Source: an uncultured Gemmatimonadota bacterium (lineage in GTDB: Bacteria > JAAXHH01). Taken from it: a stretch of DNA of 64,000 nucleotides. The notes below the pieces were generated by a model. That model did no database searches. It saw nothing but the letters and a program-made list of their open reading frames with translations, and was not told the DNA's origin. Both the position numbers and the translations under genes were made by a program. Positions 3,331 to 57,300 of this stretch are shown in pieces; within the stretch, counting starts at the first letter, position 1; every line of letters starts with the position of its first letter. The stretch is taken from positions 2,080,001-2,144,000 of the forward strand of contig OX638340.1 of the NCBI GenBank assembly GCA_951812955.1. The letters run 5' to 3'.

Positions 3331-3402
3331 TACGTCCACTCGTGCAGGGCATGTCCGCACGCAACGGCTTTTCAGCTACGCCCATTCGTGCAGGGCGTGT
3401 CC
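3331..3402. repeat. Two copies of a 26-bp sequence (tacgYccaYtcgtgcagggcRtgtcc), one inside the 3' end of the membrane-protein CDS and one just downstream
   Basis: 3331-3356 and 3377-3402 are 23/26 identical direct repeats spanning the stop of the 3376..5361 gene. Confidence 0.7.
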
Positions 3403-17853: not shown

Positions 17854-17936
17854 CGCGTCGCCCGGTCCGTTCGCGTTACCTGGTCCGATCGCGTCGCCCG
17901 GTTCGTTCGCGTTACCCGGTCCGATCGCGTCGCAGG
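17854..17936. repeat. Two tandem copies of a 36-bp unit (cgcgtcgcccggtYcgttcgcgttaccYggtccgat) plus a partial third copy, immediately upstream of the creatininase-family gene
   Basis: Direct reading of 17854-17936 in the cupin / creatininase intergenic spacer. Confidence 0.7.
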
Positions 17937-23012: not shown

Positions 23013-23309
23013 TTGGTTCGTAGACCATGGATGGACGTGACAATCAAGGCCGCGCTGATTGGCGCCGCAGTTCTGGTATATCTGGACCTGAAGGCCGAGA
23101 TCAGATCCGTACGGGTCGACCTGGGAACCAGGATCGACAGGTTGGAAACCAGGATGGGAACCAGGATCGGCAGGTTGGAAACCAGGATGGACAGGTTGGA
23201 AACCAAGGTGGACGGGTTGGAAACCAAAATCGACGAAGTACGGGGACATTTCAGGTTCGAAATGACCGAGCCAAACGAAAATCCGCCTCCCACGGACGTG
23301 AATCAATAG
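23013..23309 (+). CDS. Small membrane-anchored coiled-coil protein with internal 11-residue repeats (unknown function)
   Basis: TTG at 23013 is preceded by GAGGAG 8 nt upstream; an alternative ATG lies at 23031. N-terminal hydrophobic helix (VTIKAALIGAAVLVYL), then GTRIDRLETRM / GTRIGRLETRM / DRLETKVDGLETKIDEV repeats encoded by 33-bp DNA tandem repeats (23120-23230). Minus-strand ORFs here are shadows of the repeats. Confidence 0.45.
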   Translation: MVRRPWMDVTIKAALIGAAVLVYLDLKAEIRSVRVDLGTRIDRLETRMGTRIGRLETRMDRLETKVDGLETKIDEVRGHFRFEMTEPNENPPPTDVNQ

Positions 23310-23361: not shown

Positions 23362-24279
23362 TCACACCTCCAGGACGGCGGCCAGGGTCTCCCCTTCATG
23401 CACGCGGTTGTAAGTCCGCAGGACCAGCACGTGACCGGACTGCGTGCACACGATTTCGTCCCGCCGGTCGCCCAGCAAGTCGGTGACCACGCCGAAAACG
23501 TCTCCCGGCGCGACGCGGTCCATCAGTTCCACCCAGGGCTCGAAGAACCCTGAGAACGGCGACGGATAGTTTAATTGGATATGGCCGGCCCCTTCCCGGT
23601 CGTCTTCCACCGTATGAATGATCCTCGATGGCGGCTGGTCCCGCTCGATCATGCCCAGCACGCCCATGACGTTAAGGCAACCTTCGTAGTACTGTTCAAC
23701 CCCCTCGGGATCGCAGTCCCCGGCACCCAACCATTCCGAGTAGATCGCAGGTATGCGGGCGTCGCGTGCTATGGACAGCGTGCGGCCGTCGTGGCCCGCG
23801 TACGTACCCCAGACGATCGGCATGTTGAAGGCCCGGGCCATCTCGCGCTGGGTCTCAAGGACCCCGGCATCGGGATGCAGCATGTACCCCACCGTCGGAT
23901 AGAACCTCGATATGAGCCCACCGCTGTGCAGATCAATCAGGTAGTCGGCCTCGCGGATCATTGCGCTTACCGCGTGGGCCACGCGCTCGGTGATGGTGCC
24001 GTCCTCCCGGCCCGGGCACGTGCGGGCCAGATCCAGGCCGTCCTCGGCGGTTCGCTGCCCGCGCCAGTACGCCGCCTCGTTGACGACGGGCACCAGGGTG
24101 ATGCTTCCCCGTAGATCATCGGGGTCCAGGGCATCTTTCAGGCGCCGGATGGTCCACATGGATTCGAATTCGTCGCCGTGGACGCCTCCGAGTATGAGCA
24201 GTTTCGGTCCGAGCGCCTTTCCTTTGATTGTGATGGACTTCAGCGTGACGGGGCCTGACATCTCGACGGGGCCTGACAT
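23362..24279 (-). CDS. Succinylglutamate desuccinylase / aspartoacylase family zinc hydrolase (AstE/AspA, M14-like)
   Basis: ..LLILGGVHGDEFESMW.. and ..LIDLHSGG.. zinc-ligand motifs. The N-terminus reads MSGPVEMSGPV because of an 18-bp tandem duplication; the true start may be the second Met (24264). Confidence 0.7.
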   Translation of the reverse strand: MSGPVEMSGPVTLKSITIKGKALGPKLLILGGVHGDEFESMWTIRRLKDALDPDDLRGSITLVPVVNEAAYWRGQRTAEDGLDLARTCPGREDGTITERVAHAVSAMIREADYLIDLHSGGLISRFYPTVGYMLHPDAGVLETQREMARAFNMPIVWGTYAGHDGRTLSIARDARIPAIYSEWLGAGDCDPEGVEQYYEGCLNVMGVLGMIERDQPPSRIIHTVEDDREGAGHIQLNYPSPFSGFFEPWVELMDRVAPGDVFGVVTDLLGDRRDEIVCTQSGHVLVLRTYNRVHEGETLAAVLEV

Positions 24280-24283
24280 GATG
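24248..24283. repeat. 18-bp tandem duplication (gacggggcctgacatNNN x2) spanning the start codon of the AstE/AspA-like gene
   Basis: Direct reading of 24248-24283; duplicates the MSGPV N-terminal codons. Confidence 0.7.
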
Positions 24284-37288: not shown

Positions 37289-37421
37289 GACACCACCTCC
37301 CGGTCAACGAAGGTACATCTGCAGGCCGGGGCCAGTCGCGACCGGCAGAAACCGGCCGGTACGGACAGACGCAGGCAGGGGCCGGCATGGTCCGACAGAA
37401 ACCGGCCGGTGCGGACCGGCG

Positions 37422-38723: not shown

Positions 38724-39116
38724 GTCACGGTCCACCAAAAACCCTGCGGCCTACGGATTCATGGTAAGAAATCCGAAAGAGACTCGCAAGCAAAAAGGGA
38801 CGGGATTGCCCTGGTCCGGCGCAGTTGACAGGGTGCGTTTCCTCAGTGCATTCGGGTGCAGTCCGAACGATGAGACATGAATCGATCAGCTGGATTTCAA
38901 AGATGGGTTGATCTCGAATGAAAGCACAACGGAGACCATATTGCTGAAATTCAATTCGAGATATTCGCGTAGTTCTACACTATATTACATACATCATGCT
39001 CCATCAGTGGCCACGCTAAGACATCTCCGGTGAGCGTCGGTCGGCACATATTTGTTGGAAGACGTCATTGCTTTTATATTTGGGGTATGTCATCAACCCA
39101 CCGCGAAGGAGTCGAA

Positions 39117-39323
39117 ATGTCAGGACAAGATCCACTGGAAGTACCATCGACCCGGTGGGACTTCCTCGTCGAACGCCTGAACAAGATCGACAACCGTCTC
39201 TCTTCCCTCGAAAATGCCCAGAAACATGTCGCAACGAAGATGTGGGTCGTCGGAACCGGGCTGACGACCATCGTCGTTCTCACCGGACTGATCATCAACC
39301 TGCTCAATTACCTCAAGCCCTGA
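39117..39323 (+). CDS. Small (68 aa) coiled-coil protein with C-terminal TM helix (DUF1640 / XhlA-like architecture)
   Basis: ATG at 39117 with AAGGAG 5 nt upstream. MSGQDPLEVPSTRWDFLVERLNKIDNRLSSLENAQKHVATKMWVVGTGLTTIVVLTGLIINLLNYLKP. Sits in an AT-rich (~45% GC) spacer. Confidence 0.5.
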   Translation: MSGQDPLEVPSTRWDFLVERLNKIDNRLSSLENAQKHVATKMWVVGTGLTTIVVLTGLIINLLNYLKP

Positions 39324-39339
39324 TCCGCGCTTCGAAACT

Positions 39340-41088: not shown

Positions 41089-42654
41089 TTGATGGACGCC
41101 CTTCTTAAATCGAAATCCAATGAAGCCGATCGGTCGTCAGCCAGCTCCGGAGACCGGGAAGCCCTGACCCGTAGATCCTTTCTCAAGCAGGCGGCTTTCG
41201 TGGCCGCGGCGATGGCCGCCCCCTTTCCCGTGCTGGCGGATCCCTACGCACCGCAGTCCAGGAGCGCTGCGGCGGCCGGCGTGCGTCCGGTCCGCGTCTC
41301 CGGCCGCGTGCTTTCAGGCAGGGCGGGTCTGGGCGGCGTCGCGGTAACGGACGGACTGTCCGTCACCGCCACCGACTCGGAAGGTCGATTCGAGCTCGTG
41401 TCCAACACGATTCAGTCCTTCGTATCGATCTCAACGCCCAACGGCTACGCGTTGGAGCAGAATCCAAGCGGCATTGCCTCGTTCTACCGGCCGATCATGC
41501 CGGACGACTCCGGAGAGATGGCTGTCAGCTTCGATCTCGCGGAACTGGACGGATCGGACGAACGCCACGGATTTCTGGTGCTCGCCGACCCGCAGACCCA
41601 GGACGCCTACGAAATGGGACTCTTCCACGCGGAGACCGTGCCGGACGTCAAGGAGACCTCCGCCGCGCTGGCCGGCCGCCGGCTCTTCGGCGTGGGCTGC
41701 GGAGACATCATGTTCGACGATCTGACCCTGTACCCCGAGTACGAGCGGGGCGTGCTTCGCATGGGCATGCCCTTCTTCCAGGTCGTCGGCAACCATGACC
41801 TGGACTTCGGGCCGACCGACGACGGATCCGTCCGCACGTTCTGCCGACACTTCGGCCCCAACTACTATTCCTTCGATCGCGGAGAAATCCACTACATCGT
41901 GCTGGACAACGTGTTCTGGCACGGAGAAGGATACATCGGGTACGTGACCGACGACCAGCTCAACTGGGTAACCCAGGACCTCGCCCTGGTCGAGACCGGC
42001 AGGACCGTGGTGGTCTTCAATCATATTCCCCAGTATACCACCCGTCATATCAGAACCGGGGTCGACAGCCCGTCCATTTCGTCCACGACTGTGAACCGCG
42101 AGCGTATGTACCGCCTCCTGGAACCCTACAAGACCCACGTGTTCTCCGGCCACGTGCACGAGCACGAGCATATCTTCGAGGGCGGGATACACGAGATCGT
42201 TCAGGGCACGGTCTGTGGCGCCTGGTGGAGCGGCCCCATCTGCTGGGACGGCACGCCCAACGGTTATGGCGTCTACGAGGTCGACGGATCGGATATCCGC
42301 TGGCGGTACAAGTCCACGGGCTTGCCCGAAGACCACCAGATGCGGGTCTACCTCCGGGGCAGCGATCCCGGAGCGCCGGACGAGATCGTTGCCAATGTCT
42401 GGGACTGGGATCCCGAATGGCGCGTCGTCTGGTACGAAGACGGCATGCGGAGAGGCGCCATGGCCAGACGTCCCGGCACCGATCCGCTGGCGGAATCCCT
42501 GCACAGAGGGGCCGACCTGCCCGAACGCCGGCCCTGGGTGGAACCGGTGATCACGAATCACCTGTTCTACGCGCCGGTTTCGACCCAGGCCCGGAAGGTG
42601 GTGGTCGAAGCGACGGACCGCTTTGGCCGGACTTATGCATCCGAACTGATCTGA
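41089..42654 (+). CDS. Tat-secreted calcineurin-like metallophosphoesterase with N-terminal carboxypeptidase-regulatory-like beta domain
   Basis: Twin-arginine motif TRRSFLKQAAFVAAAMAAP. ..RVSGRVLSGRAGLGGVAVTD..ATDSEGRFEL.. (CarboxypepD_reg-like). Phosphoesterase motifs GCGDIMFDD, VVGNHD, GHVHEHEH. Confidence 0.75.
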   Translation: MMDALLKSKSNEADRSSASSGDREALTRRSFLKQAAFVAAAMAAPFPVLADPYAPQSRSAAAAGVRPVRVSGRVLSGRAGLGGVAVTDGLSVTATDSEGRFELVSNTIQSFVSISTPNGYALEQNPSGIASFYRPIMPDDSGEMAVSFDLAELDGSDERHGFLVLADPQTQDAYEMGLFHAETVPDVKETSAALAGRRLFGVGCGDIMFDDLTLYPEYERGVLRMGMPFFQVVGNHDLDFGPTDDGSVRTFCRHFGPNYYSFDRGEIHYIVLDNVFWHGEGYIGYVTDDQLNWVTQDLALVETGRTVVVFNHIPQYTTRHIRTGVDSPSISSTTVNRERMYRLLEPYKTHVFSGHVHEHEHIFEGGIHEIVQGTVCGAWWSGPICWDGTPNGYGVYEVDGSDIRWRYKSTGLPEDHQMRVYLRGSDPGAPDEIVANVWDWDPEWRVVWYEDGMRRGAMARRPGTDPLAESLHRGADLPERRPWVEPVITNHLFYAPVSTQARKVVVEATDRFGRTYASELI

Positions 42655-42735
42655 GGCCGGTCCAAGACCGACTCCGAGGCATCCGAACTGATCTGAGGCC
42701 GGTCCAAGACCGACTCCGAGGCGTCCGAAACTCAC
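42639..42735. repeat. Tandem duplication of a 42-bp unit (atccgaactgatctgaggccggtccaagaccgactccgaggc) covering the last codons and stop of the phosphoesterase gene
   Basis: Copies at 42639-42680 and 42681-42722, plus a partial third copy. Confidence 0.75.
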
Positions 42736-42812
42736 GGTGAAAACGAAGAACGGGTCATGAAGAGTCAACCATTCCCGGCAGAACGACACCGCCGGATAAA
42801 AGGGAGAACAAC

Positions 42813-43772
42813 ATGGCGAACGACGGCCTGATAAGCCCCTTCGACATCGATGACGAGGGATACTTCTGGCTCAAGGGCAATCTGCATTCCCACACGACCA
42901 ATTCCGACGGGAAGCCGTCACCCCAGGAACGGCTGGACGGGTACGTCAACCAGGGATACGATTTCCTGTGTATTTCCGATCACTACACCATAACCAGGAT
43001 CGACACGGTCAGCGCGCCGGACGATTTCGTCCTGGTGCAGGGTGCGGAGATCCATCCTGAGAACCCCTTTGGCGGCCAGACCCACCACTTCCTGGCCTAC
43101 AACATCGACGAAGACATGGATTCGAAGCGCATGCCGCCGCAGCACGTCATAGACGAGGTGCGCCGGCAGGGCGGCTCGATCTGGCTCGCCCATCCCCACT
43201 GGAGTTCGGTCAACATCCTCCGGGATACCCTGCCCCTTCACGGCCTGGCAGGCATCGAAGTCTTCAACACCACTTGCCGGTGCGCCGGACGCGGCGAGTC
43301 CTCCGTACACTGGGACGACTGGATGGACCTGCTGGGAAGGCCGATTCCAGCGCTCTCCAACGACGACTCCCACGCCCTCGAGTCGGAAAACCGGGATACC
43401 TACGGGGGCTGGAACATGGTGAAGGTCAAAGAACGCACGGCGAAGGCGATCATCGACGCGCTGGAAAGAGGCTGTGCGTACGTCAGTTCCGGACCCGAGA
43501 TCCGGGACATCCAGTTGCACCGCGTCGACGATATGGGTGATGGGAAACAGGTCGTGGAGGCGAGTATCCGGTGTTCAGAGGCGCAGAGCATTCTCGCCGT
43601 GTTCGATTCCCATGGTACGGAGTTTCGGGACCGGACAGGCCATGGAAAAACCTTCGAAGATGCCACGTTTACGCTGCGGCCCAATGTACGGTGGGTAAGA
43701 TTCGAGATCATCGCCCCGGACGGCACGAAGGCCTGGTCGAATCCCATGGATCTGGCGAAAGTCGGTCGGTGA
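42813..43772 (+). CDS. PHP-domain metal-dependent phosphoesterase (CehA/McbA-like)
   Basis: ..LKGNLHSHTTNSDGKPSPQERL.. matches the PHP HxH..SDG motif. ..ISDHYTI.. and ..AHPHW.. add further metal ligands; 319 aa. Confidence 0.7.
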   Translation: MANDGLISPFDIDDEGYFWLKGNLHSHTTNSDGKPSPQERLDGYVNQGYDFLCISDHYTITRIDTVSAPDDFVLVQGAEIHPENPFGGQTHHFLAYNIDEDMDSKRMPPQHVIDEVRRQGGSIWLAHPHWSSVNILRDTLPLHGLAGIEVFNTTCRCAGRGESSVHWDDWMDLLGRPIPALSNDDSHALESENRDTYGGWNMVKVKERTAKAIIDALERGCAYVSSGPEIRDIQLHRVDDMGDGKQVVEASIRCSEAQSILAVFDSHGTEFRDRTGHGKTFEDATFTLRPNVRWVRFEIIAPDGTKAWSNPMDLAKVGR

Positions 43773-43890
43773 TACCGCCGCGGACCGCTACAGTGGGCGT
43801 TCAGAACTCGGAGGTCGAATCCCATGGATCTGGCGAAAGTCGGTCGGTGATACCGCCGCGGACCGGCACGGTGGGCGTTCAGGACTCGGA
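43737..43890. repeat. Tandem duplication of a 77-bp unit covering the last 12 codons and stop of the PHP gene plus 38 bp downstream
   Basis: Unit 1 at 43737-43813 and unit 2 at 43814-43890, about 93% identical; the second copy re-encodes ..SNPMDLAKVGR-stop. Confidence 0.75.
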
Positions 43891-43946
43891 GACTGCCGTC
43901 CCGCGTGTTGGAGGGCGTCTGCGGTCGGCCGATGGCCGATTCGAAG

Positions 43947-45581
43947 CTACGGAAGGTCCTGCCGAAGCATGACCTCGGTGAGAACGACGGCCGATGTCGA
44001 CGCATTGTCATCGTAGTAGGTAACGAAGCGCTTCGTCTCATGGGCGTCGTAGGGGGCGAGGTTCTGCGCCCACCGGAAGCCGATGGTCTGGAACATCAGC
44101 CGTGCCCTGACTACGATTCCCTGCACACCCGGCCGCGCGGCGACGCGGTACTGGACCCTGTCGCTTCCGGCCTGGAAATCCCCATCTTCCCGCGCCGCTC
44201 CATGCACCATGATTGCGGCTTCGGCGCTCTCCTTGTCGAACCCCTCGGGCAGCAGGCGGTTGTCCTTGGCGTAGGTGACGGCCGATAGCAGGCCCGTGGT
44301 AACTCCACCTGACCCGTCCGCGATGATCGGCTCATAAATCTGTACCTGGCCGGGGTCGTCGATCACTTGGTAATGCGGCTCGAAGCGGCTACCGTCCGCG
44401 TCGTTGTCGTTACCCTTAATGCTCCCGTCGGGAAGCATGGCACCGGATTCAAACACCACGTCCCCGCCGTCATCACGAACCTCGAGGTGGATCCAGGCCC
44501 TTCGCGACGGATAGGCCGTCGGCAGCTTGTGGCCCGCCAGGTTCGACACTTTAAGATCGATAACGTATTGGTTCTCCGCGCGGGAGACTGCCAGCACCTC
44601 CAATTGAGCTGTCGCAGTCTGCAAGTGCTCCCGCGTCGCCTCGGCGGCGCGCTGAAGATCGCTTGACGGCGCGGTGACCAGCAGCTCGTCCCGATACCTG
44701 TCCAGCAAACGCAACATAAACTCGTTGCCGCCGCGAAACACATGGCGCGAGACATTCTCCCTGTACTCCCCGAGCACCGAGGAGATGGGGGCCGATGAGG
44801 TCTCCGGCATGTGGCAGGACTGGCAGCTTTCGGTCGCCGAAAAGGCGCTGTGTCGCCATTCCAGGTAGGGCGTCTGCTCCGGGAAACGGGCTGTTTCTCG
44901 CCCTTCCGCGTCCAAACTTGTCGTGAACAGGGTGTGGCAGGTCGCGCACAGTTCCGATTCCTGCAGATGCGCGGATGAATCCGGTGTGAAACCGGTGGCG
45001 GACTGCATGATCCGGCGCCGCCCGTCGTCCACGTCGAAGGGCCCGAAGATCTGAGGGTCGGTGCCTGTGCTTGAACGGATCACGAAGTTCCCATCGAAAC
45101 TCGATTCCTCGCCGAAATTGTCGGGCCGGATCTGATGGCAGGTGGTGCAGGACACCCCATCGAGGGCCAACATGGCGCGCTCGTCGCCCTGCCGCGCGGC
45201 TTCCAGGTGTGCGAACACTTCTCCCAGTCCGCCGTTTTCCTTCGCCAGCACACGCGCCATGGGCATATGGCAGGTCGAGCAGGTGTCCTCGATCTCTGCC
45301 CGGGCGTCCGGATGGTCGGTCACTTCCCGGCGTACGGATGCCTGCCAGTAGGGATCCCGCGCCGAATGCGCCATGACGGAACCGCGCCATACGTGCCCGA
45401 TGGAGACGTCCGTTCCGTCCGGACCGGTTATATTGCTGTGACAGGCGATGCACTGGTCCGAAGTGACGAACGTGCTTTGATCCCCGGACTGCGCCTCGAC
45501 CGATGCGCACGCGAGCCAGGCGAAGGCGAGCGGCGCCAGCGTGAGGCACGTCAGCAACCGCCCCGTGTAGTTACCAGCCAT
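43947..45581 (-). CDS. Secreted pentaheme c-type cytochrome
   Basis: Signal peptide (..LAPLAFAWLACASVEA). Five CxxCH motifs (CIACH, CSTCH, CTTCH, CATCH, CQSCH). 544 aa. Overlaps the upstream gene by 11 nt. Confidence 0.8.
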   Translation of the reverse strand: MAGNYTGRLLTCLTLAPLAFAWLACASVEAQSGDQSTFVTSDQCIACHSNITGPDGTDVSIGHVWRGSVMAHSARDPYWQASVRREVTDHPDARAEIEDTCSTCHMPMARVLAKENGGLGEVFAHLEAARQGDERAMLALDGVSCTTCHQIRPDNFGEESSFDGNFVIRSSTGTDPQIFGPFDVDDGRRRIMQSATGFTPDSSAHLQESELCATCHTLFTTSLDAEGRETARFPEQTPYLEWRHSAFSATESCQSCHMPETSSAPISSVLGEYRENVSRHVFRGGNEFMLRLLDRYRDELLVTAPSSDLQRAAEATREHLQTATAQLEVLAVSRAENQYVIDLKVSNLAGHKLPTAYPSRRAWIHLEVRDDGGDVVFESGAMLPDGSIKGNDNDADGSRFEPHYQVIDDPGQVQIYEPIIADGSGGVTTGLLSAVTYAKDNRLLPEGFDKESAEAAIMVHGAAREDGDFQAGSDRVQYRVAARPGVQGIVVRARLMFQTIGFRWAQNLAPYDAHETKRFVTYYDDNASTSAVVLTEVMLRQDLP

Positions 45582-49061: not shown

Positions 49062-51452
49062 TCAAAATGATCCACTGCCGAGTGGCATATTCACAAACGC
49101 GCAATGAAGAATGACATTGCTGTAGGAGTCAATCGTCTCGCCCGCACGGGGTGTGAAGGTACTTGTAAAACTGCGGCTGCCTGTGACGTTCCCAAAATGC
49201 CTGGCGCCAGTAGGAGCGGGACCGCTACGCCAATTGATAGAGGCACTGGTGTATAGAAACAAATGTGCAGCAATCCCGCCTCCAGTGTTCATTCCGGTTA
49301 TGGTCAGTTTGAGTCGACCGCCGGAGACTTCTTCGAAGGTCACGGACCCGGCGGTGCTCGGATAGCTGCTCGTACCGGAAATTGAAGCAGTACGGCTTCT
49401 CAACATCGGTGGAGGCGGCGGAGGCTCGGTCACCGTCAACGACGCCGTACCGGACTTGCCGTCCACCTCTGCTGTTATCGTCGTGGATCCGGCATTCCGT
49501 GCCCTGGCCAGTCCCGTGGTGCTTATGGTCGCAACCGACGTGTTGCTGCTCGTCCACGTAAAAGTCTTCCCGGTAATCTCCATGTTGTTCGAGTCATAGG
49601 CTGTCGCAGTGAATCGTTGCGTCTCGCCTTCTTCGATCGAACGGGAAGATGGAGACACGGCAACCCGGTCAACTACGGGGGGTGGAGGCGGAGGTTCCGT
49701 CACCCTTAACGTCGCTGTGCCGGATACGCCGTCGACGGTTGCCGAGATCGTCGTGGAACCTGCATCCAGGCCCCTCGCCAACCCAGTTACACTTATCGTG
49801 GCTACCGTCTCATCAGAACTTGACCACGTAAACGTCTTGCCCGTTATCTCGGAATTGTCCGACGTGTGGGCGGTGGCAGAAAACCGCCGGGTCTCACCCT
49901 CCTCGATTGACGCTGAGGAGGGACTCACTGTCACGGTTGCGACCATCGGTGGTGGTGGCGGAGGTGGTTCGGTCACTGTGAGCGTCGCCGTGCCGGATAC
50001 TCCATCAGTCGTCGCCGTGATCATCGCTTCGCCCATTCCGACACCAGTCGCCAGGCCGTTCGCGTCGACCGTCGCCACCATGTCATCCGAACTCGACCAT
50101 GTAAACTCCACGTCCGGGATTTCCATCCCGTCCGACGTCATTGCCATCGCCGCGAACTGCTGCGTCGCGCCTACCTCGATCGTCGCTTCAAGTGGACTCA
50201 CTGACACCGTCGATACCACCGGCTCGGGTGGCGGTGGTTCGGTCACTGTGAGCGTCGCCGTGCCGGATACTTCGTCAGTCGTCGCCGTGATCATCGTTTC
50301 GCCCGTTCCGACACCGGTCGCCAGGCCATTCGCGTCGACCGTCGCAACCATCTCGTCAGAACTCGACCACGTAAACTCCGCGTCCGGGATTTCCATCCCG
50401 TCCGACGTCATTGCCATCGCCGCGAACTGCTGCGTCGCGCCTTCTTCGATCGTGGCTTCCGATGGACTCACTGTCACGGTTGCTACAACTGGCTCTACTG
50501 GCTCGGGTGGAGGCGGTTCGGTCACCGTCAGTGTCGCCATGCCGGATACACTGTCCGCGGTAGCCGTGATCATCGCCTCGCCTGCTCCTACACCACTCGC
50601 CAGGCCGTTCGCGTCGACCGTCGCCACCATCTCGTCAGAACTCGACCACGTAATCTCCGCGTCCGGGATATCCATCTCGTCCGATGTCGAAGCCATCGCC
50701 GCGAACTGCTGCGTCGCGCCTACCTCGATCATCGCTTCAGGTGGACTCACCGACACAGTCGATACCACCGGATCGGGAGGCGGAAGTTCGGCTACGTTAA
50801 TGGTAACCGGCGAACTCGCTATACCGTCCGCCGTGGCGCGGACCGTTGCCGTACCCGCTGCGACTGCCGTGGCAACGCCGGCCGATGTAATGGTCACTTT
50901 GCTGGTATCGCTGCTCGCCCATGAGAAACTGACACCTTCGCGAATGGCGCCTCCAGACGTCCGGGCCGTCGCCGTGAAGGTCACCATTTCCCCAACCATC
51001 AGCTCCTGGGTCGAGGAAGGAGAGATCGTGACCCGGGCCACGGCGGCCTGGGTGACCGTGATCGTCACCGGTTCGCTCACGATGCCGTTTCCCGTCGCTC
51101 TGATGGTCGCCGTACCAACACTTACCGCGGTTGCCCGTCCACCGGCACTGATGGTTACTACGGCGGTATTACTGCTGGACCAGGTATAATTGACACCGCT
51201 TATTACGGCGCCGTCGGAAGCCTTGGCGGTCGCAGCCAACTGTTGTGTTCTGCCCACTTCCAGAGACACCATGTTCGGACTCACTTCGATGCGAGAGACC
51301 GTCGGTGCGGGGGGAGGTGTCGGCGTCGGTGTGGGTGTTGTCGGCTCGGCCGGTCTGGTCGGGGAGGAGTCCCCACCGCCGCACCCGACATTCAGCAATG
51401 CGCTTGAAACCGCTATCATGATGAGACCGGTAGCAATCGACCTGAATGACAT
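49062..51452 (-). CDS. Cell-surface lipoprotein with nine tandem bacterial Ig-like (Big_2) domains and a distinct C-terminal domain
   Basis: Lipobox (..ALLNVGCGG) and a Pro/Thr-rich linker. Nine ~85-aa repeats of the form (V)SxSPxxxxIEVGxTQQFxAxAxTSDG..ITxxxFTWSSSDxxVATVDANGLATGVGxGExxITAT..GVSGTATLTVTEPPPP. The DNA repeats span about 49300-51100; the antisense ORF 49609..51189 is a shadow. Confidence 0.75.
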   Translation of the reverse strand: MSFRSIATGLIMIAVSSALLNVGCGGGDSSPTRPAEPTTPTPTPTPPPAPTVSRIEVSPNMVSLEVGRTQQLAATAKASDGAVISGVNYTWSSSNTAVVTISAGGRATAVSVGTATIRATGNGIVSEPVTITVTQAAVARVTISPSSTQELMVGEMVTFTATARTSGGAIREGVSFSWASSDTSKVTITSAGVATAVAAGTATVRATADGIASSPVTINVAELPPPDPVVSTVSVSPPEAMIEVGATQQFAAMASTSDEMDIPDAEITWSSSDEMVATVDANGLASGVGAGEAMITATADSVSGMATLTVTEPPPPEPVEPVVATVTVSPSEATIEEGATQQFAAMAMTSDGMEIPDAEFTWSSSDEMVATVDANGLATGVGTGETMITATTDEVSGTATLTVTEPPPPEPVVSTVSVSPLEATIEVGATQQFAAMAMTSDGMEIPDVEFTWSSSDDMVATVDANGLATGVGMGEAMITATTDGVSGTATLTVTEPPPPPPPMVATVTVSPSSASIEEGETRRFSATAHTSDNSEITGKTFTWSSSDETVATISVTGLARGLDAGSTTISATVDGVSGTATLRVTEPPPPPPVVDRVAVSPSSRSIEEGETQRFTATAYDSNNMEITGKTFTWTSSNTSVATISTTGLARARNAGSTTITAEVDGKSGTASLTVTEPPPPPPMLRSRTASISGTSSYPSTAGSVTFEEVSGGRLKLTITGMNTGGGIAAHLFLYTSASINWRSGPAPTGARHFGNVTGSRSFTSTFTPRAGETIDSYSNVILHCAFVNMPLGSGSF

Positions 51453-57181: not shown

Positions 57182-57300
57182 AAGCGTACCAGGAAGCGCG
57201 TACCAGGAAGCGCGTACCTACGGACCGTCGCGCTTCTGAGCAGGCCGTCGCACTTCTAAGCAGGACGTCGCACTTTCGAGCAGGCCGTCGCACTTCTGAG
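57182..57300. repeat. Two adjacent intergenic tandem-repeat arrays between serA and pdxJ: 3x aagcgcgtaccagg-like 13-mers, then 4x ~20-bp units (caggccgtcgcacttctgag consensus)
   Basis: Direct reading of 57182-57219 and 57221-57300. The plus-strand ORF 57076..57306 is composed of these repeats and is probably not coding. Confidence 0.65.

Follow-up and report, generated by a model that had tools for sequence, protein, structure and literature searches.

Short tandem duplications in gene tails and spacers of an uncultured Latescibacterota lineage

Duplicated tails of two adjacent genes

We analysed a 64-kb stretch of DNA, referred to below as the window, in which a metallophosphoesterase gene (MetallophosN/MetallophosC, 41089-42654, + strand), identified by its ORF and Pfam matches, is followed by the gene of a PHP-like / CehA-McbA-type metallohydrolase (42813-43772, + strand). 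The second gene was assigned from its ORF and the names of its homologues; Pfam-A gave no match for it, and an exact look-up of the window's protein returned no record. A convergent multihaem cytochrome gene (43947-45581, - strand) bounds the next spacer.

The phosphoesterase protein ends in YASELI. TRF and a repeat search of the window revealed at this gene end a perfect 42-bp unit present 2.2 times (42637-42729), made of GCA TCC GAA CTG ATC TGA followed by 24 nt of spacer and re-copying the last 5 codons with the stop. Copy 1 (42637-42678, + strand) spans 18 nt of the gene tail, TGA included, and the 24 spacer nucleotides; copy 2 (42679-42720, + strand) is a non-coding echo, 100% identical to copy 1, and is followed by a partial third copy, GCGTCCGAA (42721-42729, + strand). 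Copy 2 is in frame, its TGA lying 14 codons past the first. A preliminary description of this DNA had recognised the tandem arrangement and the 42-bp unit, but had counted about 8 codons in it and given other limits and another copy number.

The 42-bp repeat is common to three close genomes, the window, L102 and L103, and is missing in the next species, represented by L001 and seven other contigs. In L001, which has a single copy, GCATCCGAA and GCGTCCGAA already stand 42 nt apart as an 8/9 microhomology pair, GCGTCCGAA being its 3' arm. L102 carries an extra perfect 11-nt duplication nested within copy 2. In both L102 and L103 the gene tail reads GTC and the echo ATC; in the window the two copies agree on ATC and share a derived A. 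The copies have evolved in concert, as VNTR-like repeats do, and an exchange between tail and echo altered the C-terminus of the phosphoesterase from V to I.

The tail of the PHP-like gene is re-copied in a 78-bp unit present 2.0 times (43735-43890, TRF and repeat search), with 74 of 78 positions identical (95%). The unit comprises the last 11 full codons, the TGA and 40 nt of flank; a twofold tandem duplication had been reported here before, but with a 77-bp unit and other counts of codons and flanking nucleotides. Copy 1 (43735-43812, + strand) holds 38 nt of gene tail, with the TGA, and 40 nt of spacer, while copy 2 (43813-43890, + strand) is the non-coding echo of the tail, again in frame, with a second TGA 26 codons past the first. 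The four mismatches between the copies (C/G, T/C, A/G and A/G) are all found in the non-coding half, downstream of the stop. The spacer half of copy 2 is identical to the single copy of L102 and agrees with L001 at the four differing sites; copy 1 has four derived substitutions, all in its spacer half.

The second 78-bp copy is missing in L102, a scaffold of the same species (97.74% nt identity), and also in L103 and all eight contigs of the L001 species. Four differences in 78 positions exceed the expectation for a unit that originated after the 2.3% split from L102; the duplication may predate that split and have disappeared from L102, or it may have been made by error-prone synthesis. Because the junction shows only about 1 nt of microhomology, classical direct-repeat slippage is not demonstrated for this unit. 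Junction-specific patterns of both repeats gave no match in JGI metagenome contigs; that of the 78-bp unit was absent from every other data set searched as well, and its junction is therefore without independent confirmation.

The spacer between the PHP-like and cytochrome genes is also a site of gene-content change, where L003 carries three additional genes on an insertion of 4.7 kb. We considered this insertion as a possible mobile element and rejected that reading, since it has neither mobility genes nor direct or inverted repeats at its flanks. The tail of the cytochrome gene is itself tandemly duplicated in L005 (21 nt x2.1) and in L011 (38-nt offset).

Further repeats in the window and across the lineage

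At the 5' end of the AstE-like gene (23362-24279), where a duplication had also been described, two exact 15-mers were indeed found 18 nt apart. They mark an 18-bp in-frame duplication of the ATG and 5 codons (24247-24282, - strand), and a Shine-Dalgarno sequence precedes the upstream ATG. The protein begins MSGPVEMSGPVT and its relatives begin MSGPVK/E; the start duplication adds six N-terminal residues (MSGPVE). The duplications had been said to leave the ORF unchanged each time, which holds for the phosphoesterase, PHP-like and DUF6785 genes but not for this one. The 18-bp duplication is also present in the independent scaffold L084 and is missing in L081-L083.

The same tandem pattern had been claimed at 3331-3402 (- strand). 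The repeat proved not to be tandem: the tail of the DUF6785 gene (3377-3402) is echoed out of frame, at an offset of 46 nt, by 26 diverged nucleotides (3331-3356, 88% identical). This echo is an old, decayed duplication. The copies follow one another head to tail without intervening sequence in the 42-bp, 78-bp and 18-bp duplications, but not in this echo. A similar echo of the DUF6785 tail, with a 49-nt offset, occurs in L086-L089 and in neither L085 nor L090, and another lineage shows the echo in its NCBI, Logan and ENA assemblies.

Other repeats of the window lie between genes. A 50-bp duplication of the same kind (x1.9, 37321-37420, no strand assigned) is also present in L102; exactly one 50-nt unit is missing from L103, and L001 is shorter by 35 nt at this site. 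Tandem repeats were further detected between the cupin and creatininase genes (36 bp, or 18 bp, 17854-17933), upstream of pdxJ (two adjacent repeats, 14 bp x2.5 and 20 bp x3.8, 57184-57300) and in the divergent region upstream of the DHDPS gene (23/24 bp, 2171-2318). When the window was compared with L102, 5-6 of the 7 indels of at least 6 nt fell in tandem repeats.

Altogether the window contains 12 repeats of such strength per 64 kb, versus 0.45 in Markov-2 shuffles, which indicates that they are not due to chance. The density across the clade is 16.8 per 100 kb, compared with 3.5 in GC-matched Latescibacterota and with none in 100 kb of E. coli K-12; tandem duplications are about 5-9 times commoner in the lineage than in its relatives. 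The preliminary description had anticipated a recurrent slippage-type process making short tandem duplications, a density above that of a typical chromosome and polymorphism between close relatives, and each of these was borne out, the last on comparison with L102, L103 and L001. The lineage consists of Latescibacterota MAGs of ~3.5-3.9 Mb, and the names of related assemblies suggest an association with sponges.

Gene tails are re-copied elsewhere in the lineage as well. L005 has repeats of 33 nt x3.1, 33 nt x2.1 and 21 nt x2.1, each including a stop codon, and several of its events show 3-7 nt of microhomology; in L006 the tails of the PHP-like gene and of the phosphoesterase gene are both echoed, and other echoes are carried by L011 and L017. 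The same gene tails have been duplicated independently in other lineages and other assemblies.

Position of the repeats relative to gene ends

In 532 kb of the clade, 9 of 380 stop codons (2.4%) lay inside tandem repeats, as against 4.8% of intergenic positions and 0.5% of start codons. Since stops are found in repeats less often than intergenic positions, gene ends are not targeted, and the earlier idea of a process acting at gene boundaries does not hold in this limited sample. A geometric model of ORF-neutral placement predicts 3.7-4.3 repeats straddling a stop, versus 8 observed, a number that includes the two that prompted the question; about a twofold excess is left. Three central genes, taken as a possible hot spot, contained 5 of 27 TRF-detected events versus 3.6 expected, which is not significant. 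An apparent coincidence of unit ends with stop codons was likewise rejected: it is explained in the old echoes by quicker decay of the spacer half, and the three perfect cases of L005 are not significant.

The periods of the repeats were also compared. Within genes they are divisible by 3 in 49 of 52 cases. All five recent repeats straddling a stop (42, 78, 33, 33 and 21) have periods divisible by 3 as well, which the neutral model does not predict (P about 0.004, calculated post hoc on small numbers). The older echoes have periods that are not divisible by 3 (23, 29, 38, 46, 55 and 67), and recent repeats confined to intergenic DNA show no bias (4 of 9). An excess of periods divisible by 3 among repeats classed as intergenic stems in part from small genes missed by the gene caller.

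Origin of the duplications

We regard these repeats, with a probability of about 0.8, as ordinary locus-specific, copy-number-variable (VNTR-like) tandem duplications arising via slippage during replication, microhomology-mediated duplication or unequal exchange. Any of these processes would create tandem copies anywhere in the genome. Duplications within genes would survive only if in frame and those disturbing a start would mostly be purged, while those falling in spacers or carrying a stop codon along would keep the ORF intact and persist. Because spacers are short (median ~95 nt), a unit of 40-80 nt must very often span the end of a gene. Established arrays would continue to expand, contract and homogenise. 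Re-copied gene tails complete with stops look designed, yet they would be survivors of duplications in a compact genome, and such features call for caution.

Unequal recombination with a diverged strain, in which a misaligned homologous exchange would have left the 78-bp repeat as its scar and each copy would stem from a different allele, is unlikely. It would account for the agreement of the spacer half of copy 2 with L102, and with L001 at the four copy-differing sites, for the presence in copy 1 of CGCTACAG, partly like the L002 and L006 alleles, for the microhomology of about 1 nt and for copies differing by 5% when the strains differ by 2.3%. However, only four sites are informative and copy 1 equals no sampled allele exactly, and the perfect 42-, 33-, 21- and 11-nt duplications need no second allele. 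Such an exchange would moreover be a variant of the main mechanism and not a different kind of feature.

It is improbable, in our estimation, that the clade has a heritable, lineage-specific mutator state producing tandem duplications (due, for instance, to loss or alteration of a factor in replication or repair) and in addition preferentially retains in-frame re-copies of gene tails. If so, read-through into a retained echo would give back the native C-terminus and end at a second stop, and retention in frame would explain the periods of all five recent repeats straddling a stop.

Selection of the echoes as functional elements, either in-frame back-up terminators after read-through or regulatory or RNA elements, is quite improbable. 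Both echoes are in frame and open to the second TGA, the predicted read-through products would keep an ASELI or SNPMDLAKVGR tail, and the periods of the five recent cases would suit such a role. Yet the echoes are not conserved, being absent from the nearest species and, for the 78-bp unit, within the same species, and neither the periods of the older echoes nor those of recent intergenic repeats follow the rule. Scanned at the Rfam gathering cut-offs, the whole window yielded no family. A promoter and terminator scan of 42400-44100 gave nothing in the repeats or spacers, the single terminator-like site of this region lying within the PHP-like gene and matching shuffle expectation. RNA folds of the units and of the spacers were no stabler than shuffles (z-scores -1.0 to +1.4), indicating that no RNA structure is involved. 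The motif CCGGTCCG, present in several units, was not enriched (11 observed versus 8.9 expected).

An artefact of assembly or polishing, in which strain variants or mis-joined reads would have been strung together as tandem copies that no cell contains, is highly improbable. The source is indeed a MAG (a 3.81-Mb contig), the 78-bp copies differ at four sites, at three of which copy 1 (GCTACAG) partly resembles L002 (GGTACAG) and L006 (GGCACAG), and the 78-bp junction was found in no other data set. Against this, the 42-bp repeat recurs in L102 and L103, both assembled independently and from other samples, the AstE duplication occurs in an independent scaffold, and the DUF6785 echo in assemblies of another lineage from three sources. 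The same class of event is seen in many relatives, whose record names point to different assemblers, and units of 42-78 nt are far below long-read length.

Hardly any credence can be given to target-site duplications or leftover att sites of mobile elements, the insertion/excision remnants proposed earlier: the L003 insertion in the PHP-cytochrome spacer and a 470-bp segment (38870-39339) present or absent across relatives would be compatible with them, but unit lengths all differ (11, 18, 21, 23, 33, 42, 50 and 78), sister strains have exact, clean single-copy sites, the L003 insertion lacks flanking repeats, units are not dispersed, and no inverted repeats were found. Searches of the window and of precomputed annotations for its relatives revealed no transposase, integrase, reverse transcriptase or tRNA, nor was there an RVT family among precomputed Pfam hits within +-10 kb. 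ARAGORN detected no tRNA or tmRNA in the window, and hence no att-type site is involved. In blastn-short searches, six units matched the window and 103 loci at orthologous positions only; together with the lack of a Rfam family, this led us to reject a dispersed intergenic family (MIRU, REP or MITE).

The repeats were also compared with known systems. Bacterial VNTR loci, minisatellites that lie between genes or in frame within them, serve for MLVA typing in Mycobacterium, Yersinia, Bacillus and others. The present repeats resemble them in their locus-specific units of 10-100 bp, strain-variable copy number, placement between genes or in frame within them, and copies evolving in concert; they differ in having mostly 2-3 copies, as young duplications and not long arrays, and in their high density throughout a whole uncultured clade. 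Mycobacterial MIRUs, a single dispersed sequence family at many loci, are likewise tandem spacer units of 40-100 bp overlapping stop or start codons of flanking genes, whereas the units described here match only their own orthologous locus. A near-identical copy of a gene 3' end just downstream also recalls the template and variable repeats of diversity-generating retroelements, which we rejected since no reverse transcriptase is nearby and the mismatches are not adenine-specific and lie outside the ORF.

Microhomology-mediated tandem duplications are frequent and reversible, are favoured by long GC-rich microhomology, and are depleted or in frame where harmful (PMC8639346). Like these and slippage duplications of S. 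pombe and E. coli (PMC8639346), the present repeats are head-to-tail copies of tens of bases, quickly gained and lost between close strains and depleted or in frame inside genes, and the single-copy ancestor of the 42-bp unit has flanking short GC-rich microhomology. Unlike them, the 78-bp unit is almost without microhomology, the duplications have reached fixation, or nearly so, in natural lineages and are not subclonal, and the excess is lineage-wide.

The several-fold excess of tandem repeats over GC-matched relatives would be of specialist interest, and the strain-variable loci could be used to type these bacteria, which are uncultured and apparently associated with sponges. Short tandem duplications can also edit protein ends, as happened at the C-terminus of the phosphoesterase and the N-terminus of the AstE-like protein. 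At 39118-39323 we noted a 68-aa coiled-coil/TM ORF missed by the gene caller, whose orthologues have 21-nt in-frame repeats.

Two gene-tail duplications and their distribution among relatives

Two tandem duplications that re-copy gene tails were called concordantly in the window by TRF and by an independent repeat finder. The first, a 42-bp unit present 2.2 times (42637-42729) with two identical full copies, begins 18 nt before the end of a phosphoesterase gene (MetallophosN/MetallophosC, 41089-42654) and consists of ASELI, the TGA stop and 24 nt of spacer. The second, a 78-bp unit present twice (43735-43890, copies identical at 74/78 positions), begins 38 nt before the end of a PHP-like gene (42813-43772) and consists of SNPMDLAKVGR, TGA and 40 nt of spacer. 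As 42 and 78 are multiples of three, each echo (the downstream non-coding re-copy of a gene tail) continues the reading frame without interruption to a second TGA. The PHP-like gene gave no Pfam-A match at E<=0.001 and its protein has no identical sequence on record; NCBI names the homologues either CehA/McbA family metallohydrolase or PHP domain-containing protein, and amino-acid identity is 62-95% across the retrieved genomes, mostly Latescibacterota.

The preliminary description had listed four cases of one kind. The 42- and 78-bp tandem duplications are real; the other two differ in kind. At the AstE-like gene (23362-24279, minus strand), an 18-bp in-frame duplication covers the start codon and five codons; since a Shine-Dalgarno sequence precedes the upstream ATG, the protein is longer and begins MSGPVEMSGPVT. 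This duplication is also present in L084, a scaffold assembled independently from a different sample, and is missing in three more distant relatives. The 3331/3377 pair was rejected as a tandem repeat: it is a 26-nt echo, now diverged, of the tail of the DUF6785 gene, offset by 46 nt.

With the PHP-like protein as query, 80 loci were found in Latescibacterota MAGs, 19 of which (L001-L019) show 82-95% amino-acid identity and belong to genomes of ~3.5-3.9 Mb; bin names in the record titles suggest a sponge origin for several. Two relatives closer than L001 (88.9% nucleotide identity to the window) were reached via cluster members: L102 (97.74% over window 33398-55592) and L103 (94.4%). The possibility raised earlier that the duplications are polymorphic was borne out by comparison with these relatives. 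The 78-bp duplication occurs in the window alone, with a single copy in L102, L001 and seven further contigs of the L001 species, and L103 carries in its place a threefold ~18-nt repeat of its own in the spacer between the PHP-like and cytochrome genes. The 42-bp duplication, shared by the window, L102 and L103 and missing from the L001 species, is the older of the two.

In L001, which has a single copy of the 42-bp unit, GCATCCGAA and GCGTCCGAA are already spaced 42 nt apart, an arrangement on which slippage would be expected to act. Changes in the array have continued: L102 has a perfect 11-nt duplication nested in copy 2, and in both L102 and L103 the gene tail reads GTC and the echo ATC, while in the window both copies read ATC and share a derived A. 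This suggests that the array contracted and re-expanded, or that one copy converted the other. The next-to-last codon of the phosphoesterase gene (42649-42651; echo 42691-42693) is GTC/GTT (V) in L102, L103 and L001 and ATC (I) in the window; the gene seems to have received this residue from the non-coding echo (V to I). A 50-bp intergenic duplication at 37321 is common to the window and L102; L103 has exactly one 50-nt unit fewer, and L001 is 35 nt shorter. Between the window and L102, 5-6 of the 7 indels of at least 6 nt sit in tandem repeats.

Comparable tail duplications have arisen independently in relatives. L005 contains three perfect duplications, each with a stop codon inside: 33 x3.1, 33 x2.1 and 21 x2.1 (L005 1943-2044, 6394-6463 and 11032-11076), the 21-nt one at the cytochrome gene facing the PHP-like gene. 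Echoes were found at the PHP and phosphoesterase tails in L006, at the cytochrome tail in L011 and at the phosphoesterase tail in L017. The DUF6785 tail is echoed at a 49-nt offset in the L086-L089 lineage, L085 and L090 being without it. Overall, the last 15 nt of a gene re-occur within 250 nt downstream in 8/279 genes of the clade (the close Latescibacterota lineage of the window) against 3/560 in more distant Latescibacterota.

Origin of the duplications

The best fit is a process in which tandem copies would be generated by replication slippage or microhomology-mediated tandem duplication, arrays would then expand, contract and convert between copies, and selection would retain only duplications that leave ORFs intact. 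Work in S. pombe, in which earlier E. coli studies are cited, supports this picture: microhomology tandem duplications are frequent and reversible, long GC-rich microhomology favours them strongly, and at harmful positions they are depleted or in frame (PMC8639346).

The 78-bp event leaves some room for other origins. Its microhomology is ~1 nt, and the four differences between its copies are clustered in one copy; the event may instead be an unequal exchange in which a diverged allele took part, or a duplication that is older and has since been lost in L102, whose single copy is identical in its spacer half to copy 2 of the window. No second, independent occurrence of the junction was found by exact look-up of the PHP-like protein or by a junction-pattern search of JGI metagenome contigs. 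A diversity-generating retroelement was rejected because the mismatches lie outside the ORF and are not adenine-specific, and a dispersed repeat family because the units match their own orthologous loci only.

Neither the window nor the precomputed annotations of the relatives showed a transposase, integrase or reverse transcriptase. The window yielded no Rfam family or tRNA, and the repeats and spacers contained no terminator-like sites and no folds more stable than those of shuffles. In L003, the PHP-cytochrome spacer is the exact site of a 4.7-kb insertion (L003 10961-15668) of three genes, which code for an unknown protein of 846 aa, a 335-aa ORF and a membrane ORF of 346 aa. Neither repeats at its flanks nor mobility genes were seen.

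Position of repeats relative to gene ends

The preliminary description had proposed that duplications arise at gene boundaries. Over 532 kb of the clade, with genes called by our own codon-usage caller and TRF repeats of period >=9 and score >=50, 2.4% of stop codons (9/380) lie inside tandem repeats, against 4.8% of intergenic positions (spacers up to 400 nt); for start codons the value is 0.5%. Gene ends are not targeted by tandem duplication. When the 38 non-intragenic repeats were placed at ORF-neutral positions only, 3.7-4.3 were predicted to contain a stop codon against 8 observed, these 8 including both that had led to the flagging. Geometry would account for the rest: as the ancestral PHP-cytochrome spacer measured ~96 nt between convergent stops, most neutral placements of a 78-nt unit contain a stop. 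The feature is real and its mechanism ordinary, and the gene-boundary reading is unsupported.

Among intragenic repeats, 49/52 have a period divisible by three, the signature of a selective filter. The five recent repeats containing a stop (identity >=95%; periods 42, 78, 33, 33 and 21) are also all divisible by three (post hoc P ~0.004, small n), so that each echo lies in the frame of its gene and is closed by a second stop. The bias is not seen in older echoes or in intergenic-only repeats, and the neutral model leaves the periods of these five unexplained.

Repeat density and other repeat-bearing loci

The part that merits follow-up is solely the clade-wide richness in tandem repeats. The 64-kb window contains 12, compared with 0.45 per 64 kb in its Markov-2 shuffles and 0 in 100 kb of E. 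coli K-12. The density is 16.8 per 100 kb in the clade and 3.5 per 100 kb in GC-matched distant Latescibacterota, and the excess holds in coding (10.9 vs 1.3 per 100 kb) and non-coding DNA (7.1 vs 0.8 per 10 kb). Assembly technology is an unlikely cause, since many genomes of the distant group are complete-chromosome assemblies and share their record type with the close genomes.

Several other loci bear repeats. A 470-bp lower-GC segment (38870-39339), missing from L102 and L001, contains a small ORF of ~68 aa (ATG 39118 to TGA 39323) that has a coiled-coil region and is hydrophobic towards the C-terminus. This ORF has orthologues in L103 and L005; the L005 copy has its tail and stop duplicated (33 nt x2.1), and in L011 and L013 a 21-nt unit that matches CGCCTGAACAAGATCGACAAC of the window ORF is repeated in tandem and in frame. 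A putative small ORF at 23013-23309 (repeat 23122-23234), with weak coiled-coil Pfam matches (DUF7310, HSBP1), is composed of repeats of 33 and 21 nt, with periods of 11 and 7 residues; in L081 the corresponding position is taken by an HTH_3 gene. The gene of a Big_2 (Ig-like) repeat protein (49062-51452, repeat 49963-50791) contains 270-bp coding repeats in numbers that differ from one close relative to another, the protein being 796 aa long in the window, 793 in L102 and 618 in L103; in L001 (16610-18231) six copies are 100% identical, indicating a very recent expansion. Finally, a block of 23/24-nt tandem repeats (2171-2318), in the divergent region between pyruvate-dehydrogenase E1-like and DHDPS genes, is partly conserved in L085-L091 (85-92% over 30-55 nt), hence older than the other repeats, and is possibly regulatory.
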